Shown here: positions 5,188-15,981 of the stretch, piece by piece
Numbering within the stretch: position 1 is the first letter of the stretch
Layout: the number at the start of each line of letters is the position of its first letter
Source of the DNA: Candidatus Saccharimonadaceae bacterium
GTDB lineage: Bacteria; Patescibacteriota; Saccharimonadia; Saccharimonadales; Saccharimonadaceae
Reading direction: 5' to 3'
Length of the DNA stretch: 64,000 nucleotides
Assembly (NCBI GenBank): GCA_031548885.1
Contig: JAVBQO010000004.1
Coordinates: forward strand, 32,544 to 96,543
Notes under the pieces: model-generated
Database searches by the model: none
What the model was told of the DNA's origin: nothing
Seen by the model: only the letters and a program-made list of their open reading frames with translations
Position numbers and translations under genes: made by a program

Positions 5188-5877
5188 ATGAAAAATGAAC
5201 CAATAATTTTCGCGAATGACGTGGTAATTGGGTTGTCGACAATCGCCGACGGCAACATGAAAGCCGTCGATCCGCGCGACGAAAACGAAGTTGCGAAAAA
5301 CCAAAAGACATTTTTAAGCCGTACCGGTTTTGCTCCGTCCGAAACGATGATGATTTGGCTTGACTACGACAAAACTGATTTTTGTCGGTACGAAATCGTT
5401 ACGAAAAATGCCGAACACAAAAATATGCGAAAGATCGTCGGCGTTGACGGTTTGGCGACGACTGCGAAAAATCTGGCGATTTTCTTGCCGCTGGCCGATT
5501 GTCTGGGCGCGGTCATCTACGATCCGAAAAATCACGCGCTGATGGTTTCGCATCTGGGCCGACATTCCGCCGAACAGTTCGGCGCACGAAAATCAATCGA
5601 ATTCATGACGAATCAGTTCGGCACCAACCCGCGTGACGTACGAATTTGGCTGAGTCCGACGGCCGGCGCGAAAAATTATCCGTTGTTTGCGTTTGATAAT
5701 CGTAGTTTGCGTGACGTGAATGTCAGGCACTTTTCGCAGTCTGGTGTTTTGCCGGAAAAAATCAGCGGCGGCGAGATTGATACGACGACTGACGAGAATT
5801 ACTTTTCGCATAGCGTAGCGCAAAAAACTGGCGTCGATTTGGGCAAACGCTTCGCAATTGTCGCGAAGCTACGGTAG
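5188..5877 (+). CDS. pgeF: YfiH/PgeF (DUF152) family purine nucleoside phosphorylase / peptidoglycan editing factor
   Basis: LPLADCLGAVIYD and SHLGRHS motifs (Cys/His triad region). TGaTAAAAT lies 6 nt before the ATG. Confidence 0.75.
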   Translation: MKNEPIIFANDVVIGLSTIADGNMKAVDPRDENEVAKNQKTFLSRTGFAPSETMMIWLDYDKTDFCRYEIVTKNAEHKNMRKIVGVDGLATTAKNLAIFLPLADCLGAVIYDPKNHALMVSHLGRHSAEQFGARKSIEFMTNQFGTNPRDVRIWLSPTAGAKNYPLFAFDNRSLRDVNVRHFSQSGVLPEKISGGEIDTTTDENYFSHSVAQKTGVDLGKRFAIVAKLR

Positions 5878-5922
5878 TCGCTGGCTGGTTTTTGTATATT
5901 GGTTGTGCTAATATAGCGTCAT

Positions 5923-7608
5923 ATGATGTATGGTGCGCGTCGATTATCGGGACGTCGGATTGTTTTGCTGCTAGCGGCGTTTTTGCTAGCTGTCGCGTCA
6001 GTGATAAGCATCGGCGCAACGCGAAATTTCGCACATGCGTTGGGCAATTCGGCCGCAATTTCGCCCAATCAAGGCTCAATCGCTGGTGGCACCGAAGTCA
6101 CCATCACTGGCCTGGGCTTCATCTCTGACGCAAAAATTGTTCAAGTCGCCGCCGGCAGCGACACTTCGTTTGCAGTGGATGATCACGGAAATTTGTATGC
6201 GTGGGGTTCGAACTATGTCGGCATGCTAGGCGATGGAACGACCGGCCAAATCAATACACCGAAGAAAATTTCCGGTGGAACAATCCCTGGCTCAGCCTTG
6301 ACGGCAGGCGTCAAAATCGTCAAAGTTGTGACGGGCGTTTACGGCACTGTCGCGCTTGATAGCAACGGCGACGTTTACGTTTGGGGTGCTGGTCCGCTGG
6401 GCAACGGCGATATCAACAGCTATAGCTTGCTACCGGTCAAAATTTCTGGTGGTGTTATCCCTGGTTCGGCTTTGGTCGACGGCGTAAGAATCGTTGACGC
6501 GTCGCTTATCGGTACCTCTGACGGGTTGCTTGTCGATGACGAGGGCGATTTGTACGGTTGGGGTCAGAATTCCAGCGGCGAGTTGGGCGACGGAACTAGC
6601 ACCGAGCGTTCCGTGCCGATCAAACTGTCCGGCGGCGTCATCCCAGATTCAGCCTTGACGGAAGGCGTAAAGATAGTGCAAATAGCATCCAAACTGTACG
6701 GATTCACGGCGGCGGTTGACGATCAAGGTAATCTTTACACGTGGGGTGTTAATTACAACGGCGAGCTGGGCAACGGAACGACCATCCACACTTCTTTACC
6801 AGCGGTAATTTCTGGCGGCGTCATTCCCGGATCCGCTCTGACGACGGGTGTCAAAATAGCTCAAGTCAGCATCGGCGAGGACGCCTTAGTCGCTCGTGAC
6901 GAACAGGGAATCATCTATGTCTGGGGCTCAACCGGCTGGGGTCAGTTCGGCAACGGCGCACATTTTGCTGATAGCCCAGTGCCGATTCAGATTTCCGACG
7001 GTGCTGTTCCAGGATCGATCTTGGACTCTGATGTCAAAATCGCCCAGGTGTCGGTCGGTTCATATAGCGTAGCCGCCATCGACGACCAAAACAACGTTTA
7101 CACATGGGGATACAGCGGCTACGGACTGGCTGGCAACGGAATGTTGACGGAAAATTTATTGCCAGTTTTGATTTCCGGTGGCGTCATCTCGGGATCGGCC
7201 CTGGCTGCCGACGTCGTATTGGCTCAAATTGCGGTTGGCGTCAGTCACGCTATTGCCTTCGACGACCAAGGAGCTGTCTATGGATGGGCACTCAACAACG
7301 TAGGCCAATTGGGTCAAGGTGCGTCTGGCCCGGAAAATTGCTGGGGGAGCGGGTGCGCCAAAGTGCCGATCGAAATCTCCGGTTTTGATCCGGACACCGA
7401 CACGGTTGTATCGGTAAGATTCGGCGATGTGGAATGTACGGATTTGCAGGTTATTTCCGATACAGAATTGACTTGTCGCGTGCCGGCGCGTGCGGCGGGG
7501 CGCGTTGACGTGACGCTGACGACGCAGCTGGGCGAGACGCTGGCCATCAATGGCTATACGTATCTTGACGAAACCATTCCCGGCGTGCCAAATACCGGCC
7601 GCTTCTAG
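5923..7608 (+). CDS. Secreted RCC1-repeat beta-propeller protein nested in an IPT/TIG domain
   Basis: Signal peptide, then seven Y(x)WG...G(x)LG(x)G RCC1 blades (YAWGSNYVGMLGDG, YVWGAGPLGNGD, YGWGQNSSGELGDG, YTWGVNYNGELGNG, YVWGSTGWGQFGNG, YTWGYSGYGLAGNG, YGWALNNVGQLGQG), flanked by the two halves of an IPT/TIG fold. Confidence 0.8.
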   Translation: MMYGARRLSGRRIVLLLAAFLLAVASVISIGATRNFAHALGNSAAISPNQGSIAGGTEVTITGLGFISDAKIVQVAAGSDTSFAVDDHGNLYAWGSNYVGMLGDGTTGQINTPKKISGGTIPGSALTAGVKIVKVVTGVYGTVALDSNGDVYVWGAGPLGNGDINSYSLLPVKISGGVIPGSALVDGVRIVDASLIGTSDGLLVDDEGDLYGWGQNSSGELGDGTSTERSVPIKLSGGVIPDSALTEGVKIVQIASKLYGFTAAVDDQGNLYTWGVNYNGELGNGTTIHTSLPAVISGGVIPGSALTTGVKIAQVSIGEDALVARDEQGIIYVWGSTGWGQFGNGAHFADSPVPIQISDGAVPGSILDSDVKIAQVSVGSYSVAAIDDQNNVYTWGYSGYGLAGNGMLTENLLPVLISGGVISGSALAADVVLAQIAVGVSHAIAFDDQGAVYGWALNNVGQLGQGASGPENCWGSGCAKVPIEISGFDPDTDTVVSVRFGDVECTDLQVISDTELTCRVPARAAGRVDVTLTTQLGETLAINGYTYLDETIPGVPNTGRF

Positions 7609-11931: not shown

Positions 11932-12517
11932 ATGGATTTTGACGCCGGTTCTGATGTTTTTGGCGATTGTCGTTGGGCTGTCGTTTTATCTGTCGCCTGA
12001 CGACCTGCGCGGTTGCGAAAAGCCTGGCGTGGGTAAATGCCAGAAAGCCGACAAAATCGTCGCTATCAGCGGCGGCAACACCAACGCGCGCGTTGACGAA
12101 GCGGTAAAATTATACAAAAGCGGCTGGGCGCGAACAGTTATCTTTAGCGGCGCAGCGGCTGACAAATCCGGCCCGAGCAACGCTGCAGCGATGAAAAGCC
12201 GCGCAGTTGCGAACGGCGTTCCGGAACACGCTATCTATATCGAGGAAAATTCCGAAACGACGCTAGAAAATGCCGAAAAAACAGCGCCGTTGTTTTCGCC
12301 AAATGACCGCGTGATTTTGGTTACATCGCCATATCACCAGCGTCGCGCCGGATTGGAATTTGCGAAAGAGGCGCCCGATTCAGTGAATATTATCAACCAT
12401 CCCGCGATCGATTATAATTGGTCGAAACGTGTCTGGTATCTGTCGCCGGTCGGCTGGTGGTTGACGATTAGCGAAACGACGAAAATCATTGCATTTTATG
12501 TCGGGGGGTTGTTCTAG
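11915..12517 (+). CDS. YdcF/DUF218 (ElyC/SanA-like) family protein
   Basis: TM anchor, then VAISGG...VIFSG...TTLENAEK...LVTSPYHQRRA, as in DUF218. ATG at 11924 is an alternative start. Confidence 0.75.
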   Translation: MSGMLKWILTPVLMFLAIVVGLSFYLSPDDLRGCEKPGVGKCQKADKIVAISGGNTNARVDEAVKLYKSGWARTVIFSGAAADKSGPSNAAAMKSRAVANGVPEHAIYIEENSETTLENAEKTAPLFSPNDRVILVTSPYHQRRAGLEFAKEAPDSVNIINHPAIDYNWSKRVWYLSPVGWWLTISETTKIIAFYVGGLF

Positions 12518-13542
12518 TGAAAGTGTATGTTGGCATGAGCGGCGGCGTCGACTCGTCGTTGACCGCGGCGCTACTTTGCGAAAAAGGTTACGATGTGACC
12601 GGCGTGTATATGAAAAACTGGACGCAGGATTTGCCCGGCATGAAATGTCCATGGGCGGACGATTTGGCCGATGCGAAACGTGTCGCGGTGCAACTCGGTA
12701 TTCCATTCAAAGTGTTCGATTTCCAGGCCGAATACAAACAAAAAGTCGTCGATTATATGATCGCGGAATATTCGGCCGGCCGCACGCCAAATCCGGATAT
12801 CATGTGTAACCAAGAGGTTAAATTCAAGATTTTTCTGGAAACGGCATTGGCAGACGGCGCCGAAATGATTGCGACCGGGCATTATGCTCGAACCGAAAAT
12901 GGTGAGTTGTTGAGAGCGATTGATAACAACAAAGACCAAACGTATTTTCTGTACCGCGTAACGGGCGATGCTTTGCGAAAAACGTTGTTTCCGCTGGGCG
13001 AATTTACAAAACCGACCGTGCGAAAAATGGCAGAGGAGCGCGGTTTGGTTACAGCTCGGCGAAAAGAGTCGATGGGCGTTTGTTTCGTCGGCAACGTTGG
13101 TATTCGCGAATTCCTTTCGCAATTCGTTGACACGACGCCGGGTGAAATCATCGAAAAGGAATCGGGCAAAGTTTTGGGTCATCACGACGGCGCGATTTTT
13201 TATACCTTTGGGCAGCGTCACGGTTTGAACATCGGTGGTGGTTTGCCATATTACGTCGTCGGCAAAGACATGGCGAAAAATGAGGTTTGTGCATCGACCA
13301 ATTTGAACGACGAATCGTTTTGGCGCCACGAGTTGCGATTAACTGATCTACATTGGATAAACGACGCGCCGGTTGCGAGAAAAACGTATCAGGTTCGATT
13401 GCGCCACCGTGCGCCATTGGCCGATTGCGAAATTGACGGCGACAAATTGATTTTGCGAAACCCAGAACGCGCGATTGCGCCGGGGCAGTCGGCGGTGATT
13501 TATGACGGACGGGCTTGTCTTGGTGGCGGAGTAATTGTCTAG
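12517..13542 (+). CDS. mnmA: tRNA 2-thiouridine(34) synthase
   Basis: PP-loop VGMSGGVDSS, NPDIMCN and KDQTYFL motifs. Confidence 0.92.
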   Translation: MKVYVGMSGGVDSSLTAALLCEKGYDVTGVYMKNWTQDLPGMKCPWADDLADAKRVAVQLGIPFKVFDFQAEYKQKVVDYMIAEYSAGRTPNPDIMCNQEVKFKIFLETALADGAEMIATGHYARTENGELLRAIDNNKDQTYFLYRVTGDALRKTLFPLGEFTKPTVRKMAEERGLVTARRKESMGVCFVGNVGIREFLSQFVDTTPGEIIEKESGKVLGHHDGAIFYTFGQRHGLNIGGGLPYYVVGKDMAKNEVCASTNLNDESFWRHELRLTDLHWINDAPVARKTYQVRLRHRAPLADCEIDGDKLILRNPERAIAPGQSAVIYDGRACLGGGVIV

Positions 13543-13552
13543 AACTTCGTCA

Positions 13553-13585
13553 GAAAATGAAAATCGGGCACCTTAGAGATGCCCG
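13553..13585 (-). terminator. Intrinsic terminator of the minus-strand small-ORF transcript
   Basis: Hairpin CGGGCA-N9-TGCCCG (13565-13585), followed on the minus strand by a U-rich run (plus-strand gaaaatgaaaat). Confidence 0.55.
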
Positions 13586-13740
13586 CCCGCGCCATAACCG
13601 GGCGCTGGGTGCGGTGCTCGGATAACCTCCGAGCTTGGTCTTGCTGAATGGGGTAAGGTGTTGTCTGTCAACGAGTAAAGCTATCGATCGCAACTATGCA
13701 TTTATATTGCTACAGTACTAGCGGTGAGCTCAGTGCGCCG

Positions 13741-13986
13741 TTAGCTCTCTTCGATGATGCCGACGATGATGCCGTCGGCATTCACGATGAAAGTATCCGA
13801 GCAGAAACCCAGAAGACAGTCGTCGCCTGTCTTGCAGATACCGCAGTCACACTGGGTCTCCATCACGCTCACGCGACGGTTCTCGTCCCAGGGATTCGGC
13901 AATTCTTCGACTCGCGGCTTCTCGTATGAGGCCTTCAGGAAGTCGTCGAACACTTCTCCAACATGCTGCTGCATGAGATTCTCCAT
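13741..13986 (-). CDS. Small Cys-rich hypothetical protein in a high-GC single-gene island
   Basis: 81-aa ORF with GGAGGTG 8 nt upstream. Own promoter TTGACT-N17-TATCAT (14027-14055, minus). High GC3 and every Lys codon is AAG, unlike the neighbouring genes. Confidence 0.6.
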   Translation of the reverse strand: MENLMQQHVGEVFDDFLKASYEKPRVEELPNPWDENRRVSVMETQCDCGICKTGDDCLLGFCSDTFIVNADGIIVGIIEES

Positions 13987-14026
13987 TCAACGTACACCTC
14001 CAGGGCGTTCCCGGATGGATAGCTCA

Positions 14027-14055
14027 ATGATACCATATTAACTTATAGTAGTCAA
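14027..14055 (-). promoter_or_regulatory. Sigma70-like promoter for the 13741-13986 small ORF
   Basis: On the minus strand: TTGACT (14055-14050), 17-nt spacer, TATCAT (14032-14027). Confidence 0.55.
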
Positions 14056-14106
14056 TAGCCTATCTTAATCCCGCAGTGATTCTAGAGTTATGGTACAATA
14101 ACAGAT

Positions 14107-15981
14107 ATGAACGCAAACGAAATCCGCAGAACCTACTTTGAATTTTGCCGCGAAAACGGCCACGAAATCATCCCGCGCGCCAAATTGGTGCCGGAAAACG
14201 ACCCGACGACGCTGTTTACCGGATCGGGCATGCAACCGCTTTTGCCGTATTTGTTGGGGCAAGATCACGAAAAAGGCGTCCGTTTGGCCGATTCGCAAAC
14301 CTGTTTTCGCGCCGACGACATCGACGAAGTTGGCGACAACCGCCACACGACGTTTTTTGAAATGCTGGGAAATTGGTCGCTGGGCGATTATTTCAAGGCC
14401 GAACAATTGCCGTGGTTTTTCGAATTTTTGACTGACAAAGTTGGTTTGGATGCGAATCGTTTGTACGTCACGTGTTTCATTGGCGACGAAAAATTCAACT
14501 TGCCGCGTGACACCGAATCCGCGGAAATCTGGAAAAATCTGTTTGCGAAAAAGGGAATCGATGCGAAAGACGTCGAAATCGGATCCGAAGCCGACGGTGC
14601 TGAAAAGGGTATGCAGGGCGGCCGAATTTTCTATTACGACGGTGGCAAAAACTGGTGGTCGCGCGGCGGCAAACCGGAAACAACACCGGTCGGCGATCCA
14701 TGCGGTCCGGACAGCGAAGTCTTTTACGAATTCACCGACATCGAACACAGCCCGGCGTTCGGCGCGAATTGTCACCCGAATTGCGATTGCGGCCGATACA
14801 TGGAAATTGGAAATTCCGTGTTCATGACGTACCGCAAAACCGAGACCGGATTCGAAGAGCTTGCGAAGAAAAATGTCGATTTCGGCGGCGGTTTGGAGCG
14901 AATCGCGGCGGCGGCGATCGATTCGCCAGACATGTTCAGAATCAGTTTGTTGTGGCCGATTATCGAAAAGTTGGAACAATTATCAGGCGAAAAATACGAC
15001 GATTACGCGGCGAATATGCGTGTGATCGCCGACCATGTTCGCGCCGCAATTTTCCTAATCACGGACGGCGTTGAACCATCGAATAAAGAACAAGGCTATG
15101 TTGTACGACGACTAATGCGCCGGGCGATTCGTTTTGCATTTGATCTGGGAATTGAGGAAAAATTGATGAACCAAGTCGTGCCGGCGATTTGCGAAATCTA
15201 CGCGAACGATTTTGCGGAACTTGATGCGGAAAAAGTCTTGGCGATCATGGAAAAGGAAGAAAAAGTATTTCGCAGCACACTACGTGCCGGCGTCAAACAT
15301 TTCCAGCGCGAAACACGTAACGGTCATTTGACCGGCGAAGTGATTTTCAAATTGTACGACACGTATGGATTCCCGATGGAATTATCGTTGGAGGAGGCGT
15401 CGCGGTCGAACGTGTCAATCCAGCCGGATTGGCAAAACGAATTTGACGCGAAAATGGACGAGCAGAAAGCCCGTTCGCGAACTGCAACAAAGGGTCAGTT
15501 CAAGGGCGGTCTTGGCGGTCAAACTTTGCAGCACAAAAAATATCACACAGCGACGCATTTATTACAATCGGCTCTCAGAAACATCCTCGGCGAACAATTG
15601 CGCCAACACGGATCGAATATTACGGAGGAACGCCTGCGATTTGACTTTAATTCGGATCGCAAAGTAACACCGGACGAAATTGCGAAAGCCGAAAAATTGG
15701 TCAACGATTGGATTTCGCAAGATTTGCCAGTGACGTTCCGTGAATATCCGACCGACGTGGCGCTGCAAATGGGCGCGATCGGGCCGTTTGGCGAACGCTA
15801 CGACGAATCTGTCAAAGTGTACCAAATGGGCGACGGCGAAAACATCGTCAGCCTAGAAATTTGCGGCGGTCCGCACGTCGATCACACTGGGCAGCTTGGC
15901 GAAAATGGTGCGAAATTCAAAATCGTCAAAGAAGAAGCTTCGAGCGCCGGAATTCGCCGTATCAAAGCGATTTTGGCCTAA
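14107..15981 (+). CDS. alaS: Alanine--tRNA ligase, minimal form lacking the C-Ala domain
   Basis: N-terminus IRRTYFEFCRENGHEIIPRAKLVPENDPTTLFTGSGM. Editing-domain HTATHLL and CGGPHV motifs. Only 624 aa. Confidence 0.9.
   Translation: MNANEIRRTYFEFCRENGHEIIPRAKLVPENDPTTLFTGSGMQPLLPYLLGQDHEKGVRLADSQTCFRADDIDEVGDNRHTTFFEMLGNWSLGDYFKAEQLPWFFEFLTDKVGLDANRLYVTCFIGDEKFNLPRDTESAEIWKNLFAKKGIDAKDVEIGSEADGAEKGMQGGRIFYYDGGKNWWSRGGKPETTPVGDPCGPDSEVFYEFTDIEHSPAFGANCHPNCDCGRYMEIGNSVFMTYRKTETGFEELAKKNVDFGGGLERIAAAAIDSPDMFRISLLWPIIEKLEQLSGEKYDDYAANMRVIADHVRAAIFLITDGVEPSNKEQGYVVRRLMRRAIRFAFDLGIEEKLMNQVVPAICEIYANDFAELDAEKVLAIMEKEEKVFRSTLRAGVKHFQRETRNGHLTGEVIFKLYDTYGFPMELSLEEASRSNVSIQPDWQNEFDAKMDEQKARSRTATKGQFKGGLGGQTLQHKKYHTATHLLQSALRNILGEQLRQHGSNITEERLRFDFNSDRKVTPDEIAKAEKLVNDWISQDLPVTFREYPTDVALQMGAIGPFGERYDESVKVYQMGDGENIVSLEICGGPHVDHTGQLGENGAKFKIVKEEASSAGIRRIKAILA

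Follow-up and report, generated by a model that had tools for sequence, protein, structure and literature searches.

A compact, probably mobile single-gene unit encoding a very rare small acidic protein at the variable mnmA-alaS junction of a Candidatus Saccharimonadaceae genome

The mnmA-alaS junction and its minus-strand unit

The window analyzed here is a stretch of 64,000 nucleotides from contig C3 of a Candidatus Saccharimonadaceae genome, which measures 854 kb, is 98% complete and has a GC content of about 50%. The related genomes used for comparison all fall between 0.5 and 1.2 Mb, which is consistent with the ultra-small epibiont assumed in an earlier reading of this DNA made without database searches (the sequence-only reading). 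Two plus-strand housekeeping genes of the window, mnmA and alaS, both now assigned by Pfam, are separated by a minus-strand insert at positions 13543-14106, as that reading had described. Its components are listed in Table 1, together with the occupied mnmA-alaS gaps found in relatives.

Table 1. Features of the mnmA-alaS junction and of the minus-strand unit within it; positions are those of the window, except for the gaps in relatives, which are given by locus
Feature	Positions	Strand	Basis
mnmA	12517-13542	+	Pfam
alaS	14107-15981	+	Pfam
Promoter TTGACT-N17-TATCAT, sigma-70-type, with TG extended -10	14027-14055	-	Consensus scan and homolog comparison
Leader AUCCAUCCGGGAACGCCCUGGAGGUGUACGUUGA, 34 nt, conserved, includes SD GGAGGUG	13987-14020	-	Homolog comparison
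ORF, 81-aa acidic protein	13741-13986	-	ORF reading and homolog alignment
Proximal 3'UTR, not conserved, neutral baseline	13653-13740	-	29-33% identity to homologs
Distal 3'UTR block, conserved, 100 nt	13553-13652	-	71-75% identity to homologs
CCAUUCAGC, complementary to start-codon region GUUGAAUGG	13651-13643	-	Inside distal 3'UTR block
Hairpin 1	13634-13616	-	Inside distal 3'UTR block
Hairpin 2	13605-13589	-	Inside distal 3'UTR block
Terminator hairpin CGGGCA...TGCCCG	13585-13565, T-run to 13553	-	Inside distal 3'UTR block
Occupied mnmA-alaS gap in relative, L037	342-1309		
Occupied mnmA-alaS gap in relative, L040	2493-2966		
Occupied mnmA-alaS gap in relative, L032	436-594		
Occupied mnmA-alaS gap in relative, L044	2395-2901		
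Occupied mnmA-alaS gap in relative, L043	2435-2917		
Occupied mnmA-alaS gap in relative, L039	2460-2957		

Each of the expression signals that the sequence-only reading had proposed for the insert was recovered. The promoter is present and carries a TG extended -10 element; it is the sole promoter-like site within 13300-14300, a span in which shuffled sequences average 0.9 sites. The Shine-Dalgarno (SD) sequence GGAGGTG is found at 14001-13995, 8 nt upstream of the ATG at 13986, and is followed by the 81-codon open reading frame (ORF), a 3' untranslated region (UTR) of 188 nt that folds more stably than its shuffled counterparts (z = -3.0) and contains several hairpins, and an intrinsic terminator made up of a minus-strand hairpin and a T-run. 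Extended -10 promoters near consensus, and terminators, occur at equivalent places in all three of the homologous units described below. These parts make the insert a real transcription unit, complete in itself and with one gene. On the plus strand, an extended -10 sequence belonging to alaS (TGgTACAAT, within 14089-14109) ends 9 nt upstream of the alaS ATG, so that the alaS mRNA would be leaderless or almost so; in relatives with a gap of 2-60 bp between mnmA and alaS, alaS must be co-transcribed with mnmA instead.

The description of the unit as a high-GC island proved to be an overstatement. The ORF has a GC content of 54%; the window stands at 49.9% and the flanking mnmA and alaS at 50.5%, which leaves an excess of 4 points, and 100-nt windows never rise above 0.59. 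What is atypical about the ORF is a particular codon dialect. Its GC3 of 0.74 is among the highest 1.6% of values for native windows of 81 codons; all three Lys codons are AAG, which makes up 17% of Lys codons genome-wide; and 11 of the 15 Lys, Glu and Gln codons end in G against 27% natively (binomial P = 2e-4), a level matched by about 0.1% of the genome's genes of at least 100 aa. Two-fold pyrimidine-ending codons end in C in 22 of 29 cases (P = 0.004), and GCG and ACG, both natively favored, are absent. The claim of foreign codon usage holds for these features but not for the overall synonymous-codon likelihood of the ORF, which stands at the 33rd percentile. About 10-15 further genes in the genome, mostly unannotated, use the same AAG/GAG/CAG and C-ending dialect (e.g., C4:196127-196762, C2:18408-19286, C4:6391-7631, C7:23128-23715 and C7:14355-14858), and these may represent a pool of horizontally acquired genes.

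Two other points had been raised about the unit. The first was the absence of a "native octamer", which is probably TTGCGAAA. This octamer (TTGCGAAA/TTTCGCAA) occurs in 1374 copies in 854 kb, or one per ~620 bp and ~50-fold over the uniform-random expectation, and it could be driven by favored codons (TTT-GCG-AAA, TTG-CGA-AAA) or represent an uptake-sequence-like signal. It is indeed missing from the unit, but this is uninformative, as a stretch of 564 bp should contain 0.9 copies on average and the probability of finding none is 0.40. The second was the grouping of the unit with other islands of the window, four in all. The genome contains no further copies or paralogs of the unit or of its conserved UTR blocks, which means that no sequence relationship links the four islands.

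The encoded protein and its family

The 81-aa product is strongly acidic (pI 4.12; 17 acidic versus 6 basic residues) and hydrophilic (GRAVY -0.23), with no hydrophobic stretch and no transmembrane (TM) helix. The five Cys residues noted in the sequence-only reading are located in CDCGICKTGDDCLLGFC, where they fall within 17 residues. Searches of Pfam, NCBIfam, PHROGs, PADLOC and the PDB returned no match to the protein, and no homologs were detected in 60 related genomes, 185,579 species genomes, 50,697 phage records, 72,556 plasmids or the IMG/VR viral contigs; at the DNA level, the unit is absent from 400 genomes of the order. A word-indexed search of 5.8 billion proteins recovered the query alone when a single sequence was used and the three known members alone when their alignment was used. 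An exhaustive HMMER scan of 1.84 billion representatives identified two true homologs, P0002 (79 aa, 57% identity, E = 2.6e-13) and P0003 (72 aa, 59% identity, E = 5.8e-12). Two other matches from the same scan, P0004 and P0005, were rejected as spurious and contain eukaryote-like Cys repeats. Judged by these searches, the 81-aa protein belongs to a very rare, undescribed family.

Comparisons within the family rest on three distinct sequences in total, namely the window unit and two homologs. Their alignment contains 31 invariant columns, most of them in the C-terminal half, with an invariant core of ASY.KP.V.E / SVMET / LLGF..D.FI.N.D.I.G..EE. The three genes start at an equivalent position, 8 nt downstream of a GGNGGNG box, with TTG as the start codon at locus L060 and ATG in the other two. 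Identities at the three codon positions are 0.68, 0.75 and 0.33-0.47, and pS is 0.72-0.86, indicating saturated synonymous sites, against a pN of 0.27-0.33; dN/dS is 0.14 between the window unit and locus L061. With synonymous sites saturated and a dN/dS of about 0.14, this comparison indicates that the ORF is a real protein-coding gene whose product is under purifying selection, in place of the unconserved frame with dN/dS near 1 that the sequence-only reading had named as evidence against it. AlphaFold models of the protein (pLDDT 60 from one sequence and 50 from three sequences) contain a helix and beta strands, and a Foldseek search with the low-confidence model gave no match at E <= 0.001. 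We take the product to be a small acidic protein of the cytoplasm, about 75-85 aa in length, which probably has a helix at its N terminus and a C-terminal half rich in beta structure.

The Cys residues lie in a variable loop of 8-16 residues. Two members carry a five-Cys cluster of the form CxCxxC...C...C, and P0003 retains the loop with no Cys at all. Because the loop is variable and one member is Cys-free, the Cys cluster appears to be an optional feature that is dispensable for the common function of the family, and not its functional core; where present, it is possibly a metal or disulfide knuckle. The zinc knuckle of proteins such as ribosomal L31, L33 and S14 exists with Cys (C+) and without it (C-), and the family resembles them in having two members with the cluster and one with a Cys-free loop, the remainder of the sequence being conserved. 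The 81-aa family is, however, unrelated to these proteins, its loop differs in length among members, and metal binding is putative.

The sequence-only reading had favored capture from high-GC Actinobacteria serving as the host, or from phages of that host, with the product acting as a Cys-rich effector, an immunity protein or a precursor of a ribosomally synthesized peptide (RiPP). The elevated GC3, the preference for AAG, GAG and CAG, and the five Cys within 17 residues are what would be cited in its favor. Against this, the excess in GC amounts to only 4 points, and the closest relatives of the gene are not in Actinobacteria or their phages: the species genome, phage, plasmid and viral collections yielded no homolog, the sole homologs are found on metagenome contigs of 42-49% GC, and none of the evidence points to Actinobacteria. 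The product also departs from a RiPP precursor, as P0003 has no Cys, the conserved part of the protein is the C-terminal beta region and not the leader, and no maturase or transporter gene adjoins any copy, the neighbors being mnmA and alaS in this genome and insertion sequence (IS), restriction-modification and unannotated genes elsewhere. Capture of a Cys-rich peptide gene from a high-GC host is thus scarcely credible.

Probable mobility of the unit and variability of the junction

The gene for P0003 is part of a 780-bp segment. L061/L062 and L063/L064, which come from different samples, share this segment at 100% identity and have unrelated DNA on either side of it. The L061 cassette (5835-6614) is situated between IS3-type transposase (rve) genes, near restriction-modification, NUDIX and McrA-like genes, and the L063 cassette is bordered by 43-bp direct copies of a hairpin with a perfect 17-bp stem (566-608 and 1343-1385). 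The 780-bp cassette also carries a small convergent ORF past the terminator, which has no counterpart in the window unit. The metagenome contigs that bear homologs are 42-49% GC, and a search within the phylum of the window, made with a DUF2779 gene from L061, gave matches in its other classes at about 50% identity. This is loose evidence that the hosts of the homolog contigs may belong to the same phylum.

Some of this is reminiscent of integron cassettes: a structured element that is conserved comes after a single small ORF, one and the same cassette occurs in different surroundings, and in L063 hairpin repeats mark its two ends. An integron cassette consists of a promoterless ORF with attC and adjoins an IntI tyrosine recombinase gene and attI. 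In contrast, the unit has its own promoter and terminator, with a near-consensus promoter in all three units; no integrase gene adjoins any copy, the neighbors being DDE (rve) transposases; and the border hairpins of L063 look like terminators. On these two features, a promoterless ORF and an IntI neighbor, the unit does not qualify as an integron gene cassette.

Synteny of mnmA and alaS is kept across the order, with a gap that ranges from 2 to 4215 bp. The 81-aa insert is absent from this position in relatives, where its conservation would have spoken against a captured gene, and other genes are present instead: the gaps hold small membrane proteins, orphans and genes with a GFTIVELLVVI motif, which we take to be type IV pilin-like, none of them related to the unit. 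Given the range of gap lengths and the unrelated genes that fill them, this junction is a hot spot of variation, and the 81-aa unit is its lineage-specific occupant. No flanking direct repeats, target-site duplication or insertion scar were found at the unit in this genome. The only other contig that encodes the same MnmA matches this one over 7 kb at 100% identity, and thus represents the same strain and carries no information on polymorphism. The absence of the unit from relatives, the variability of the junction and the atypical codon choice indicate that the unit was probably acquired horizontally, and in this sense its foreign flavor is upheld.

The gene could instead be a native, vertically inherited and fast-evolving small gene, with the metagenome homologs being orthologs in rearranged neighborhoods and nothing about it mobile. 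The homologs are all on mid- or low-GC contigs, one of which has same-phylum-like genes, no insertion scars are seen at the unit, and the overall codon likelihood is ordinary, all of which would suit vertical descent. However, such a gene is missing from 60 relatives, 400 genomes of the order and 185,579 species genomes, a 780-bp cassette containing it is 100% identical in two unrelated contexts, its K/E/Q and C-ending codon dialect is atypical, and the junction in relatives is filled with unrelated genes. We give vertical descent only a small chance of being correct. The reading that we prefer, and consider probable, is that of a genuine, self-contained unit that was horizontally acquired at the variable mnmA-alaS junction and encodes a small acidic protein of a rare family.

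Small acidic proteins carried on mobile DNA often act by binding or mimicry. The 81-aa protein is like the acidic proteins of mobile elements, for example those with anti-restriction activity, in being small, strongly acidic and orphan in distribution, which is a functional analogy only, and the L061 homolog has restriction-modification, McrA-like and IS genes in its neighborhood. In searches, neither the sequence nor the predicted structure of the 81-aa protein resembled any of these families. By this analogy, the protein might act by binding or mimicry, such as in an anti-defense or regulatory role, and not as an enzyme or peptide precursor; this is our best guess, though one of low probability.

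Conserved non-coding blocks and a predicted mRNA fold-back

DNA homology among the three loci runs from the -35 box to the T-run of the terminator, with nothing beyond. Between the window unit and L061, identity is 59% in the promoter, 85% in the leader through the first three codons, 62% in the coding sequence (CDS), 33% in the proximal 3'UTR, which is the random level, and 75% in the distal 100-nt 3' block. The homologous promoters, TTGACA-17-TATTAT and TTGACA-17-TAAAAT, are at the matching position, and the terminator stem shows two compensatory pairs across the three units. Because synonymous sites are saturated, the leader and the distal 3' block are under selection of their own. Pattern searches based on these blocks gave no additional copies: a metagenome scan with the leader pattern produced 27 matches, all of which fall into the same conserved stretch of coding sequence in high-GC genes and are false positives, the 3'-block pattern had nine chance matches in the contigs of the 185,579 species, in high-GC Proteobacteria and similar genomes, and scans of viral collections with patterns including the 3' block had no match.

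The non-coding blocks exceed the CDS in conservation, which raises the question of whether RNA is the payload of the unit, with the distal 3' block acting as a 3'UTR-derived small RNA or as a protein-binding or stability element, the leader as its cis target, and the ORF being secondary. The 3' region contains three consecutive GC-rich hairpins and has the folding z-score of -3.0 given above, and in local folds of the window unit and L061 the seed-like CCAUUCAGC is unpaired upstream of the hairpins. On the other hand, the ORF is clearly under purifying selection, the genome contains no other copy or obvious trans target of the block, and no internal promoter precedes the distal 3' block. The Rfam scan proposed in the sequence-only reading for 13553-13740 matched no RNA family (E <= 1 across 12500-15000 on both strands, covering the leader and the 3' region). 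An RNA payload has, in our estimation, a slim chance of being the explanation.

The conserved blocks contain sequences that could act on translation of the unit's own mRNA. The 5' end of the leader, AUCCAUC (14020-14014), is complementary to the SD/start region (GGNGG, AUGGA), making the leader self-complementary with both SD and start codon (AUCCAU / AUGGA; GGG / CCC), and CCAUUCAGC, which opens the distal 3' block, is complementary to GUUGAAUGG spanning the start codon. In full-length folds, the start-codon region and the 3' block pair with a probability of about 1.0 in the window unit and L061 and of about 0.9 in L060, where both sides have changed and the register is shifted or extended. 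RNAalifold recovers this 5'-3' helix in its consensus structure; in the window unit, the SD part of this consensus long-range helix is mismatched. Covariation of the long-range helix among the three sequences is not significant, as its score was reached by 57 of 500 shuffles and most pairs never vary, and for two of these sequences the duplex between the start region and the 3'UTR has an energy no better than that obtained with shuffled 3'UTRs. Two other pairings were seen in the window unit, between the start of the leader (14014-14024) and the proximal 3'UTR (13679-13689; 11 nt, 91%) and between the CDS (13794-13803) and the 3' arm of hairpin 1 (13615-13624; 10 nt, 100%); both are probably due to chance because they are absent from the homologs.

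In the mechanism that we propose, the 5' AUCCAUC and the 3' CCAUUCAGC would both pair with the SD/start-codon region. Much like a type I toxin mRNA, the full-length transcript would fold back on itself, and its translation would stay poor until the RNA is remodeled or processed. From these fold predictions, it is possible, though we hold it only tentatively, that the conserved non-coding blocks gate expression post-transcriptionally. A broader proposal, in which the unit would be a new type of mobile single-gene module of ultra-small (CPR-type) bacteria and the mRNA for an acidic, non-membrane protein, such as an anti-defense or addiction factor, would be locked by conserved anti-RBS elements at its 5' end and in its 3'UTR, is unlikely as a whole.

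Long-distance 5'-3' interactions have been described in the toxin mRNAs of hok/sok (fbi-tac) and of Helicobacter pylori aapA1/IsoA1 (PMC5416894, PMC6733600). The unit is like these systems in being compact and autonomous, in having a strong promoter and variable or mobile contexts, and in the predicted sequestration of its ribosome-binding site (RBS) by its own 5' end and a conserved 3'-end element; it differs in that it encodes an 81-aa acidic soluble protein and not a short hydrophobic peptide, and in that its fold-back is predicted from three sequences. These likenesses, including the predicted occlusion of the SD and start codon, could be read as signs of a type I toxin-antitoxin-like addiction module, in which a toxin mRNA is kept inert by the 5'-3' fold-back and an antisense RNA. 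Type I toxins are small, usually under 60 aa, hydrophobic and membrane-active. The product of the unit is instead acidic and hydrophilic, exceeds the classical toxins in length at 81 aa, has no TM helix and matches nothing in PADLOC or Pfam. A consensus scan for antisense promoters inside the unit found none in the window unit or L061 and, in L060, a site that is not conserved, leaving no antisense promoter that is shared by the three loci. A type I addiction module is therefore very improbable.

In conclusion, the mnmA-alaS junction of this genome contains a real gene of a new and very rare small-protein family, in a compact and probably mobile unit whose conserved UTR blocks are probably regulatory. 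This result corrects an attractive but unsupported account of host-to-epibiont capture of a Cys-rich peptide gene. Reduced epibiont genomes are thought to leave little space for accessory DNA; nonetheless, throughout the order, small genes come and go at the mnmA-alaS junction, which separates two housekeeping genes. The unit is a clean case of a minimal horizontally moving gene, in which promoter, leader, ORF, structured tail and terminator are contained in about 500 bp, and in which the non-coding leader and distal 3' block are more strongly constrained than the coding part. If the proposed fold-back gating is true, a regulatory design familiar from type I toxins would serve a new class of protein as well, in a poorly studied phylum, and the unit, at 470 nt and 81 aa, would be a tractable test case for it.
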